Below are positions 1 to 46,095 of a stretch of 64,000 bases of DNA, piece after piece. The stretch's first letter is position 1; the number at the start of each line of letters is the position of its first letter. This DNA comes from Eledone cirrhosa (lineage: Eukaryota): positions 306,094,001-306,158,000 of the forward strand of contig OZ024742.1 in NCBI GenBank assembly GCA_964016885.1, read 5' to 3'. Below the pieces are notes generated by a model. The model was given only the letters and a program-made list of their open reading frames with translations. It was not told the origin of the DNA and searched no databases. Both the position numbers and the translations under genes were made by a program.

Positions 1-543
1 TTTAGACTCTAGCGCTATTTTATCACTTCTTACTATCCAATTTTATATTTTTATATATATATTTTTTTATTATCTTCTAATCTCAATTGATACACCTATT
101 CTATAACGTCTCTTCTCTATTTCCCCAGAATCCTTTTTCGCCTGCTTCCTCTAGCCCATTTTCATACGCAATCCTTAGAATTTGATGTATAGAATTCACT
201 TCCAACGCTTGACCGGCTCAACCCACCCCCTCATTATTCTACAGGCAAGTTCAGGCGCCCCCACCTCCTATCCACTGCCATGATAGACTTAATTGTGTTT
301 ACAAGACATTTTGACCAATCCTCTTGAGTACTATAATCTTCCCATATAAGGAATTACCCCTTGAAAAGCTCGGCTATTTATTTACCACGCTAAAAATTCT
401 AATTTAGTCCAGAAATAGCCGTCGAAACGGCTTGAGCTCTGCAGTCAGGGTCAAACATTTTCCTATTTCCCACTCTACTGCCCTAAGTATTGAGTATTCT
501 GGTGTGTTATGGTCCATCTGGTTCCTTACCACACCTCCTTCGG
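1..543 (+). mobile_element. 3' end/pseudo-LTR of Penelope-like family A (continues off the window start), ending in (TA)n
   Basis: Aligns by eye to 35894-36132 (+), 45730-46095 (+) and the reverse complement of 33079-33400, the 3' end of the RT/EN-coding element at 33-36 kb; contains the HHR at 356-451. Confidence 0.85.
356..451 (+). ncRNA. Type I hammerhead ribozyme, U3-A8 core variant (family A), slightly decayed
   Basis: ACCCC-TTGAAAA-stem II CGGCTATTT/AAATAGCCG-GAAA-CGGC ttGAGCTCt GCAG-TC-AGGGT; one mismatch each in stems I and III relative to the 33090 copy. Confidence 0.75.
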
Positions 544-580
544 TATATATATATATATATATATATATATATATATATAT

Positions 581-960
581 AGTGGTAGAACACTGGAAGG
601 TAATATCCGTAGTGGTAGAGCACTCAGTCCATGGGACGAGTTAGGTAGAAGTGGTTACACAACAGTTAGTTCACCATACCGAGAACAATTGTTTCACCTT
701 AGCGGATCCTAAGCTCGTAATGGACATGGTTATACGGAACAGGAAGGTCAACTGTACGAACGCGTATGCACAGAATTGATCACTTCACACAGGCAATACT
801 AAATTGCGTGCGAGTGGTGTAAGGGAGGTAACTGCGAAAGTCCGAAAGTTTCTGGTTGATAAGAAAATTAGAATGTAGTTGTAATTCAATCCGGAACTTT
901 GAAGTTATGTAAGAGGTGTTTCACCTTACGCACGCAATTCAGTATTGCCTGTGTGAAGTG
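581..960 (-). mobile_element. Unclassified (TA)n-flanked element fragment with internal inverted repeat
   Basis: Abuts (TA)n at 580; 32-bp inverted repeat 781-812/929-960; carries the CTGAGTGCTCT motif at 617-627 (-) shared with the HHR families. Confidence 0.45.
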
Positions 961-1183
961 AATATTTGATTCTTATAGAATTCTAGTAATAATCAGGAAC
1001 TGATTATACAGAGCGGTTGCCTGTCAAGCAGAAATTGAAAATTAGAATTGGTGCTCTGAAATAGCGATATATATATGAATGTATATATAGTGTATTTTGC
1101 AATACACTGTATGTTAATTAAAAAGCACTTCGAAGACCTTACGCTATTGTTTTAGAGTAGTGACAGTCTCACTTACTTTAAAT

Positions 1184-43002: not shown

Positions 43003-43049
43003 GCATCTGAAAAGACCATAAATATGGAGTCGAATACAATTGTTACCCA
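43003..43049 (+). ncRNA. Probable hammerhead relic at the end of a (TA)n-flanked element
   Basis: CTGAAAA-GACCATA aa TATGgaGTC-GAAt-ACAATTGT-T; stem I is poor. Confidence 0.4.
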
Positions 43050-44999
43050 TTCCTCATAAATATATATATATATATATATATATATATATATATATATATA
43101 TATATATATATATATATATATACATCTATGTGTGTATATACATATACATATGTGTTTTTGTGTATATGTATAGGCATGCGTCTATGTCCGCTTTTTTTCT
43201 TTTAATTAACAATAAAAACAACAAGCCGGTCTCGAATTCAGAAACACATCTTTTTCATTGGAATTAAGACAATATCAACTAGGTTATCTTGTCATAACTA
43301 TTTTTAGTAAAAGAGTAAATAAAAGAAAAAAAGAGGTTATATGTCTTAATCTGTATGGTGAACAAATGGGTTCCCACGTGCTGGCCTTCCCACAGCCCCG
43401 GCGGACAGAAAGGAGAAGGTGTTTCCCGGAGGATGGTAAGGGAAATGCGCTGGAAGAGCCATTCCAACTCGCGAGGCTCACACCTGCGGCTGGCCAGCTC
43501 AACGCATATGGTGGTGAATAGGGAGGTAGCTCTAGGACACCAGAAGTCTCCACTGCCAAGGGCACGACCGTGAACCTGTCGGAGAGGGACCGGTACTAGG
43601 TTATTATGTATCTATGTCTGGATGTGTGTGTATCTGTGTGTGTGCGCCTGTGTGTGTCTGTGAGTGCGGTGTATGTGTGCATGCATGAATTTCATTACAA
43701 GTGTGCGTGTACCTGTATGAATCTTACTGCATTATTGATATGTATGCGTTGTGTTATATGTGCACATATACATATGTTTATATATCTACTACATGTGTAC
43801 ATGTAGTTATTATATGCTAAATTTCTCGAAAGTTTTATATATTTTCATAACTCTATTAATGTCTGTACTTACAATTTCCTCATAAACCGTGTTCTTCCTG
43901 GTTTTTAGAAGCCCAGCTTTAGAAGCATTTACTAATACATAGTAAAAATAGGCTCTATGATCATATACAAATTATTGCAAATGTTTAGTATTTTGTATTT
44001 CACAGAAATGCATTATGATCTTTTTTAAATATAATAAATCGCAGTGTCATATCTTTTTGAAAGAGAATTGAAACCGAATTTCGTTTAAAATCTCTCTCAC
44101 CCATAAAGAGAATTCTGCTTTCGGTTAAGCACTGAGTAAATGTTGTAGCAGAAACAGTACATGAATATTTTTTTTAATTATATGGTTTTTATTTACAGCA
44201 TAATTGGAAACAAAATTAGCACCTATAAGATTTAAAAGGTGAAATTCGAAATCAGCCACAACAAAGCAACTAATCTGCCTCTTTTACTGTCTCGGCGATT
44301 TCTTCCAACTTCCTTAACCAGAAGATTGGCATCTAATTAGAAAGCAATTATTTCATTCTCAGTAATATTATAGTAGTTAATAGCTAGTAGTCGTGTGAAT
44401 ATATAGAAAATAGCACTGACACGACCTGAAAACCCTCAATGTTGTGTGAATGGTTTCATAGAGGAACAGGTAATTATTTGAATATTGACAACCTAATTTA
44501 AGAAGTGGTTAAGAAACTGACAGAGAAACTAGAAATGGCGTTGATGGGTTGAATGAAAATCTGCGACCTGACCTTACATTTATATCTAATGTCTCAGCGC
44601 AAGTTTGAGTTAGCGTGCTGATGAGATGTTGACCATTTCATTGTCTTATGTGTCTCCGATACTTCAAGCTGCTTTAGAATTCATGCTTAATTTGTATGCG
44701 TTTGTGAATTCATTTGCATGAATATGGTTGTAATCATGACCATATGTTATACTATATTAGTATACACTTAGATTATTTTGATCGTTTTTAATAGATTTCA
44801 ATGTGATAGACCGAATGGTATGTGTGTAAGCTGGGCGTGAGTGCATATGCGTTTCAGAGCGCAAACCATTTTGAGTATTAAGCTGTGTTATACGTGATTG
44901 TTTGTGTCTCCATGTGTTACGACGAGACTTCTATGTTTGATACCTGACTACATGAACAAATTATTTACGTCATTACAGAGACATGCGTATCTGTTTGAG

Positions 45000-46095
45000 T
45001 AAAACATTCACTCGAGTCTAAAACAGCTGCTATATCTTTAGCTGGTGTTGAGTTTTCAGCCAATGCTATATAGAATGTACGGGTGTGGGGGTACTGAGGC
45101 TACAAAAGCCCGATTGGCTACCTCAGGGTAAGTGAAAGAGGAAAAAGGAAAAGGAAGAGGAGAGGGAGTGGAAGGAAGTTAGAAGAAGAGATAAAGTGAA
45201 AGAAGAAAATAATTACATCTACCTATGTATGCTGGGGCTTCGCCTATCTTGTTCGGCAAGAGGGGAAAAGAAGAATGTTACAGCCATTGTCTACCCACCC
45301 GGGTCATGAGGGGGTTTGAAGGCAAGGTAAGTCCTACGCAATCGGTGTTTACATGCGGTTACATTTCGTCTTTTTTCTTTAGGAGTTGGTCCTTCGTAGA
45401 CAGCATTTGTATTGTTTCCTCCGAGTATAAGTTACACGGACGGCGTCCTCTCCAGTAGGAGTTAGCCCTGGAAAGTAAGCTCCAAGTAAGATGGTATGTG
45501 ATGTTATTATCTTGGAGGTCCCAGATGTTGCCCAAAAGTATAGTGACTAGTCGCCGGGCCGGGTTTCTGTGTTGTTAGAGCCGGGCCTTAAAGTCACAGG
45601 CGGTTAATCCAATATAGGCTTTGTTGGAGTTCTCCTTTCTCACGTTGCATTGGTAGATCACGTTACGTTTTTTTTTTTATTATTTTTTAATTTTAATTTT
45701 TTAATTTTAAAATTTGCCATTTTCAGTATGCTGTATAATTCTATTTTCGCTTGCTTTCTTGCTAGCCTACTTCATCCACACTCCTTAGAATTAGTTGTAT
45801 AGAACTTACTTTCAATATTTGACCGGCTTAACCCACTCCCCCATTGTTCTACAAGCAAGTTCAGCCACCCCCACATTCTACCCACCGTCGTGTAATATTT
45901 AACTGTGTTGACAAGAAACTTTGACCAATCCTTTTGACAGCTATAACCTTCAGAAATACATGATTATCGCTTGCCCATATACGGAATTACCCTTGAAAAG
46001 TTCGGCTATATTATTACTATGCTAAAAATCTAATTTAGTCCTGCAATAGCCATCGAAGCGGCTTGAGCTCTGCCGTCGGGGTCCTGAACCTTTTT
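45000..46095. mobile_element. Truncated family A PLE: EN C-terminus on - (to about 45668) plus inverted 3' end on +
   Basis: 45060-45668 is colinear with 33640-34270; 45730-46095 is similar to 130-465. Confidence 0.85.
45989..46082 (+). ncRNA. Type I hammerhead, U3-A8 core, A15.1>G (family A)
   Basis: ACCC-TTGAAAA...GAAG-CGGC ttGAGCTCt GCCG-TC-GGG. Confidence 0.7.

Follow-up and report, generated by a model that had tools for sequence, protein, structure and literature searches.

Paired and mismatched hammerhead ribozyme cores among the Penelope-like elements of an Eledone cirrhosa genome

The window analysed here is a stretch of 64,000 nucleotides from Eledone cirrhosa (contig OZ024742.1 of assembly GCA_964016885.1; G000:C3:306094001-306158000), located within a 3.0-Gb genome rich in microsatellites. 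It contains several insertions of Penelope-like elements (PLEs), arranged head to head as is usual for them and with (TA)n as their target, as well as a 320-bp tandem unit, and these carry type I hammerhead ribozymes in which core positions 3 and 8 form either a C3-G8 or a U3-A8 pair (Table 1). The principal subject is one of the PLE families, family A, in which about a third of the copies arose with a mismatched and probably crippled active site (C3·A8) before the pair was regained. Hammerheads were sought with type I structure descriptors run alongside shuffled controls, and repeats were delimited by masked self-BLAST; microsatellites swamp plain repeat finding. In an Rfam scan of the window the 150 matches listed, out of 212, were all microRNA models and included no hammerhead, and Pfam searches with nine window reading frames yielded nothing useful.

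Table 1. Hammerhead motifs and associated elements in the window (positions count from the first nucleotide of the window; ORF, open reading frame; RT, reverse transcriptase)
Feature	Position	Strand	Core and remarks
Family A PLE (Hydra type by its motifs)	33079..35900	-	5'-truncated; ORF with stops and frameshifts; RT followed by C-terminal GIY-YIG; at (TA)n
Family A type I hammerhead	33090..33186	-	UUGACAA (U3-A8), core at 33180-; long helix II, 4-bp helix III, UC site
Family A hammerhead, inverted short arm	35944..36040	+	UUGACAA, core at 35950+
Family A hammerhead, slight decay	350..460	+	UUGAAAA, core at 361+
Older family A copy	45986..46082	+	UUGAAAA, core at 45993+; GAAG for GAAA, a private decay
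320-bp retrozyme-like unit	1184..1274	-	UUGAUAA, core at 1246-; palindromic helix III, extended helix I
Two tandem 320-bp units, 320 nt apart	1468..1840	+	Core 1472 (G5A, decayed) and core 1792 (UUGAUAA)
Family C minimal hammerheads, head-to-head pair	36296-36331, 36406-36441	-, +	UUGAAAA; cores 36328-, 36409+
Family C hammerhead	7460..7495	+	Core 7463+; one mismatch in helix II
Family E pair	25022-25057, 25137-25172	-, +	U3-A8 with GCAA for GAAA; cores 25054-, 25140+; sister of family C
Young PLE, Hydra-like linker	10872..13413		TTGACAA...GAAA at both ends (10938-, 13347+); possible 'family G'
C3-G8 minimal hammerhead of a second PLE (1981-7147)	2023..2088	-	CUGAAGA, core 2080-; inverted twin 7040-7105(+), core 7048+
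C3-G8 hammerhead	8122..8195	-	CUGAUGA, core 8190-
Partial C3-G8 hammerhead	9325..9363	-	CUGAAGA, core 9357-; helix II and GAAA; 3' side unpaired
C3-G8 hammerhead	25393..25449	-	CUGAUGA, core 25445-
C3-G8 hammerhead	37144..37217	-	CUGAUGA, core 37213-; inverted twin 41124-41197(+), core 41128+

That these motifs are hammerheads, as an earlier note on the window had proposed from the letters alone, was borne out by both core and fold, the ribozymes being of type I and located in the terminal repeats (pseudo-LTRs, LTR denoting long terminal repeat) of PLEs and in one retrozyme-like unit. The U3-A8 copies of family A, the 320-bp unit and family C all combine a YUGANRA...GAAA core with a paired 3-8 combination and a UH cleavage site, the exceptions being the decayed single copies at 45993 and 1472. 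The 1184-1274(-) motif folds as a type I hammerhead with a z-score of -6.7 (0 of 200 shuffles as good), and all three stems are present in the centroid structure of 33085-33195(-), which 8 of 200 shuffles equalled (z -1.8); the family A copies folded, with z-scores of -1.8 and -2.4, thus give moderate support for three helices. Family C, with a 3-bp helix I, gave no monomer fold (z -0.5) and neither did family E, as is expected of minimal dimer-type motifs. The family A ribozyme at 33090-33186(-), of which 31 identical copies were present among 41 matches (1,532 candidates), is uncut and lies about 17 nt from the end of its element.

Family A was assigned to the Hydra type of PLE on the motifs of a naturally open 710-aa frame, which comprise RWR in place of RWK, DKT, a CxCx5C linker, CxxC, CxH and, at the C terminus, GIY-YIG, all within an ORF of less than 3 kb; like Hydra-clade elements it inserts into (TA)n, and a Pfam search with the family A protein returned no match. 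Families C and E look Neptune-like, a label taken from motifs: both have an RT with a C-terminal GIY-YIG and a Cx2-5CxxC linker, with DKG seen in copies of E, and Pfam matched GIY-YIG (E 4e-7) as well as RVT_1 (E 1e-6 to 5e-6, under the curated cut-off). The family C domains were found in copies other than the 36296-36441 pair of the window, and family E copies contain long open RT frames. With DNA that is 82% identical across 65 nt at the ribozyme and an RT-endonuclease that is 53% identical in amino acids, C and E are by sequence sister families of one U3-A8 lineage. The 320-bp unit, by way of contrast, appears to be non-LTR retrozyme-like, as it is arranged in tandem with one hammerhead per unit and cores 320 nt apart both in the window and genome-wide, and no ORF of 150 aa was present within 960-1962.

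The earlier note had counted five unrelated U3-A8 families, a number that did not survive. The best candidate for its family G, at 10938-/13347+, formed none of hammerhead stems I-III in the copy folded and recurs with nearly the same sequence at 13 loci; the young PLE family to which it belongs (359 candidates, many 99% identical) may be the third to have spread while lacking a ribozyme. With C and E as sisters and candidate G devoid of hammerhead stems, three U3-A8 lineages remain in the window, represented by four families (A; the 320-bp unit; C with E), as against four to five C3-G8 families. Further U3-A8 families were observed outside the window, namely a tandem unit of 593 nt, one related to the 320-bp unit, and a short motif whose palindromic helix III is 8 nt long (L254:554, L260:1736 and 2329, L261:1963, L142:6146).

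The prevalence of the two cores was assessed in 79 hand-spaced genomic stretches of 10 kb (790 kb). With a loose descriptor 49 C3-G8 and 11 U3-A8 sites were recorded (shuffle means 0.3 and 1.0), to which exact family patterns added about three U3-A8 sites. A strict descriptor gave 57 matches, among them 42 C3-G8, 4 U3-A8 and 3 C3·A8 (13 per shuffle; 0.4 for C3-G8), and when applied to the window recovered 3 of 11-12 U3-A8 sites as against 6 of 7 C3-G8 sites; because it under-detects U3-A8, the results of the looser descriptor and exact patterns are reported as well. U3-A8 accounts for roughly a fifth of the hammerhead sites in the sample and is a minority form. The contention that it is the commonest form thus holds by site between 361 and 45999 (11 U3-A8 sites against six C3-G8 sites plus one partial) as a local effect, and fails across the 790 kb. 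Neither is U3-A8 as uncommon elsewhere as had been supposed, Cercyon PLE hammerheads of Schistosoma mansoni being reported to include about 1,300 U3-A8 against about 2,000 C3-G8 motifs (Cervera and de la Pena 2014, PMC4209133). One family of the sample that seemed to have a U3·G8 core was rejected as decay of a 9,280-site C3-G8 family. Separately, an abundant repeat in L128, L141, L143 and L150 has a weak hammerhead score and a U3·U8 core without helix III, and probably reflects chance.

Positions 3 and 8 always change together in the window, as the earlier note had stated, and in three of the families counted genome-wide pairing is near-total. In family C, 121 of 13,576 sites lack U3, with A8 present in all of the first 100 such sites listed; the 320-bp unit retains U3-A8 in 98 of the first 100 listed of its 1,083 sites, and the C3-G8 control family is paired in 94 of the first 100 listed of 9,280. 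Unpaired combinations in these three families are at the level of decay. A run of family C C3·A8 sites repeated every ~9.6 kb at G000:C1:348863669-348949708 represents tandem duplication of one decayed copy.

Family A departs from this pattern. Counted genome-wide by one 20-nt pattern, its 4,844 sites, which are not independent elements in that many loci contain two or three, comprise 3,023 with U3-A8, 1,744 lacking U3 but retaining A8, and 77 lacking A8 (all listed), nine of which are C3-G8. Position 7 of the U3-A8 sites, said by the earlier note to vary freely, does indeed take all four letters. The first 100 listed of the 1,744 include 97 with C3, 92 of them CUGAGAA, so that about 1,690 of the 4,844 sites (~35%) are C3·A8 and have no Watson-Crick pair between positions 3 and 8; the condition by which the earlier proposal was to be judged, mismatched combinations as frequent as paired ones in young copies, is therefore closely approached in this family, while pairing is near-total in family C and the 320-bp unit. 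Substitution at unchanged length, and not an insertion or deletion, underlies the mismatch; most loci have the same core on both arms, and no C3-G8 subfamily came to light within family A when one was sought from the 3' side. An assembly error is unlikely, since contigs from public runs that carry three organism labels also contain C3: in run X1, possibly of the same source as the assembly, it accounts for ~48% of contig depth there, and in runs with two other labels for ~30% and ~28%, at low depth. Contigs aligned to the window copy covered the core thinly. A second, distinct break characterises family E, in which G12 A13 A14 is replaced by GCAA for GAAA (A13C) in 98 of the first 100 listed of 4,161 sites. 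Given the C3·A8 of family A and the A13C of family E, paired change across families, from which selection for catalysis had been deduced, is no proof of strict selection of that kind.

The history of the mismatch was reconstructed from the 3' part of the ORF in 32 copies, most of 30 near-identical copies having been left out of the trees. In the resultant tree some U3-A8 copies are basal, C3·A8 subfamilies follow as a ladder in which five successive nodes are starred, and a crown of U3-A8 copies is nested within that ladder at 100/100. Monophyly of the U3-A8 rows was rejected by the approximately unbiased (AU) test (p-AU 0.0006, with the group named after earlier trees had been seen); loci chosen for an odd position 8 were dropped for this test, and three non-family rows that were present in it were removed from the comparisons described below. 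Characters of the terminal repeat agree with the ORF tree in grouping the crown with the later C3 subfamily; in this and the constraint comparison five U3-G7 rows were wrongly binned as basal, with majorities unaffected. When rooted with two outgroups of 50% identity on cleaned columns, the tree placed its root in the basal U3-A8 group (95/99). At least one change from C3·A8 to U3-A8 is required under any root, and the best reading of these sequences is a core history of U3-A8 to C3·A8 and back to U3-A8.

Ratios of non-synonymous to synonymous change (pN/pS) between subfamily majorities were 0.16, 0.13 and 0.06 (28 loci). The second of these steps, with C3·A8 at both ends, consisted of 17 synonymous and 8 non-synonymous changes in 335 codons. 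The majorities retain YRDD and the GIY-YIG motif and contain no stops, and individual copies differ from their group by about 1-4%. As judged from such comparisons the mismatch lineage is autonomous, its protein being under purifying selection.

Constraint on the ribozyme itself was evident between the two C3·A8 groups, where none of 41 core and stem positions had changed as compared with 17 of 127 in loops and flanks (p 0.006). Around 15 of the 41 were fixed beforehand by the search patterns, and with the remaining 26 the difference persisted (p 0.035; across all three steps, p 8e-5). The fold was thus kept while the 3-8 pair was broken. Overlap with coding sequence was considered as a cause of core conservation and rejected: the repeat that contains the ribozyme is untranslated, some 275 nt separating the ribozyme from the ORF that follows, and a short frame that spans the core upstream is missing from some subfamilies. 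It was observed in addition that an open frame of ~115 codons lacking an ATG runs from helix II of the family A ribozyme, directly after TTTAG, to overlap the ORF start in another frame (L065:3900-4220(-), L061:2375-2700(+)); in basal copies it is preceded by CTAAT, which resembles a branch point and hints that a 3' splice site lies within the ribozyme.

The ends of 85 family A copies were scored. All retain the cleavage site, 30 ending 17 nt past C17 and 11 elsewhere at 7-20 nt, with 44 running on. The suggestion that uncleaved template survives is in keeping with these copies, which end beyond a site they have kept.

The explanation preferred here, to which a probability of roughly 0.6 is attached, is that uncut RNA serves as the template, that the core of each family is passed on by its master element, and that self-cleavage is only weakly selected while the fold is kept. 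Reverse transcription would start at the base of helix I, as it does for the PLE of Anolis, and the helices may be retained mainly as the structure at whose base it does so; if the RNA that is copied is uncut, catalysis would be only weakly selected. C3·A8 and GCAA ribozymes would be nearly inactive, and a small benefit of cleavage, for example in freeing element RNA from read-through transcripts, could hold the other core letters in place and favour a return to U3-A8 without amplification ceasing when it was lost. Several published observations accord with this. In the in vitro experiments described for an Anolis PLE, ribozyme-dead mutations had no effect on insertion and the main template was unprocessed RNA (PMC11167929); a natural CUGANAA copy is presented as likely inactivated, in line with its authors' cleavage assay (PMC8490949); C3G/G8C is the only swap reported as rescued in this region by pairwise mutagenesis (PMC9901934); and Naiads without a hammerhead are described as proliferating well (PMC8557442). 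The predicted share of the hammerhead fold is likewise 2-3% in C3 copies (6 and 18) as against 14-23% in U3 copies (3 and 11). The C3·A8 core is accordingly regarded as likely near-dead on this analysis, and cutting is probably not needed to spread.

Certain observations weigh in the opposite direction. A root within the crown was not rejected (p 0.25), and the first outgroup alignment, in which two rows were contaminated by other PLE sequence, gave a root among the C3 rows. The mismatch lineage counts as a single evolutionary event, and the published data on mismatches come from other ribozymes. The 3-8 pair was regained in family A and is nearly invariant in family C and the 320-bp unit; moreover, the lack of change in all 11 other core letters during the mismatch phase would also fit an active variant.

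This last point leads directly to the alternative that CUGAGAA is itself a working core, catalysis having been selected throughout, either through a C3-G7 pair in a shifted register or as a C·A wobble with protein help. In the shifted register position 7 would be lost and the extra A would take the role of the unpaired base that PLE hammerheads commonly have between 9 and 10.1, where an extra base is described as typical (PMC4209133). G7 is fixed in the mismatch lineage in the proportion given above, the U3 subfamilies using all four letters, the stems as well as the other core letters stayed unchanged, and the Anolis ribozyme is reported to cleave only with its protein (PMC11167929). However, G7 and C3 share one ancestry, and the association therefore counts once. 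Of the double mutants reported for this region none but C3G/G8C was rescued, in an assay that did not score U3-A8 as rescued either (PMC9901934); a backbone change at A6-N7 is expected from the account of natural variants to be harmful (PMC3088659); C3 lowers the predicted share of the fold; and family E provides a second core break with no evident register escape. A working CUGAGAA is on balance unlikely. The broader proposition, in which an unrecognised natural core active by C3-G7 shift, protein help or editing would have sustained at least five successive subfamilies and some 1,700 sites, is scarcely less doubtful.

The earlier note's own explanation, that positions 3 and 8 change together under strict catalytic selection with U3-A8 tuned so as to cleave more slowly and let template survive, draws on the near-total pairing of family C, the 320-bp unit and the C3-G8 control family, on the existence of at least three separate U3-A8 lineages, and on the return to U3-A8 in family A. 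As a strict rule it is contradicted by the ~1,690 inherited C3·A8 sites of family A and by A13C throughout family E, while C and E constitute a single lineage; the dominance of C3-G8 genome-wide (49 against 11) indicates that slowing is not generally needed. It is considered improbable.

Editing of A8 from adenosine to inosine (A-to-I) would convert C3·A8 into C3-I8 and switch the ribozyme on in some transcripts. Head-to-head insertions yield long double-stranded RNA, an A that faces C is a favoured substrate of ADAR, and inosine can pair with C; but edited RNA, once copied, would give C3-G8 copies, and A8>G occurs at 9 of ~1,701 sites on C3 as compared with 30 of 3,053 on U3 (p 0.13), with no excess, and the proposal is held to be very improbable. 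Least credible of all, notwithstanding that PLE loci are rearranged and nested and that two rows of the first rooted alignment were contaminated, is a ladder created by recombination between subfamilies or by assembly, given that terminal-repeat characters match the ORF tree, C3 occurs under three organism labels and both arms mostly have the same core.

A number of other sequences in the window were examined. TTGAAAA at 9615, which lies upstream of a C3-G8 motif, was rejected as a hammerhead, as were sites 8730, 7286 and 1035/1355/1683, where no hammerhead formed. Long near-perfect palindromes at 59479-59827, 24911-25283 and 25921-26457 are typical of head-to-head PLE insertions, the first containing a CTGAAGA at 59647+ without a convincing fold. 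A repeat of ~190 bp is present in at least eight copies, including one tandem pair (10982-11201, 19718-19922, 21076-21225, 29853-29965, 52282-52469, 57904-58312, 60865-61001); it has a box-B-like motif, and is probably a tRNA-derived short interspersed element.

To account for the hammerheads of PLEs, cleavage has been proposed to free or to circularise RNA, yet insertion in vitro is normal with dead mutants, and clades lacking a hammerhead prosper. Family A offers a natural experiment within one genome, in which paired, mismatched and re-paired active sites occur in the same autonomous element, each core state being represented by roughly a thousand or more dated sites, and the role of PLE hammerheads thereby becomes directly testable. 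Should CUGAGAA prove dead, amplification in vivo would need no cleavage and the fold would have another job; should it prove active, it would be a new core variant, missed by standard descriptors in every genome, and current searches would undercount hammerheads.

With respect to known systems, the U3-A8 swap in PLEs is already published and on its own ordinary; the covariation had earlier been described in other hammerheads as natural and active in vitro (Perreault et al. 2011, PMC3088659), and the section of that paper on natural core variants shares U3-A8 with the present families and contains no C3·A8. What is likely new is the production of about a third of a PLE family with a mismatched, likely crippled active site, followed by recovery of the pair: no report of a natural C3·A8 hammerhead lineage was found in a literature search outside which lay the kinetic work of Martick and Scott (2006), Przybilski and Hammann (2007) and Nelson and Uhlenbeck (2008) and some supplements. 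The Cercyon PLEs are similar in their U3-A8 covariation, pseudo-LTR location, palindromic helix III and many solo copies, but neither an inherited C3·A8 lineage nor a reversal is described in the relevant part of that account, and in place of their minimal fold family A has a stable helix III of 4-5 bp and a helix II domain of 57 nt (PMC4209133). As portrayed by Craig et al. (2021, PMC8557442), PLEs of the Hydra clade share with family A a single ORF of less than 3 kb, RW(R/K), DKT, the linker, CxxC, CxH, (TA)n and a hammerhead in the repeat; their hammerheads are described as canonical, whereas family A has U3-A8 or C3·A8, with RWR for RWK. The 320-bp unit resembles animal non-LTR retrozymes, as these are outlined in a preprint (bioRxiv 10.64898/2026.07.22.740005), in its tandem repeats with one type I hammerhead per unit, and differs in its U3-A8 core. 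Closest in behaviour is the Anolis Poseidon element PAc, for which insertions from uncut RNA, fixed end points and a tail left behind are likewise described (PMC11167929); its core, however, is a canonical C3-G8 and its ORF starts within the ribozyme, whereas in family A the ORF starts well downstream and the break in the core is both natural and heritable.

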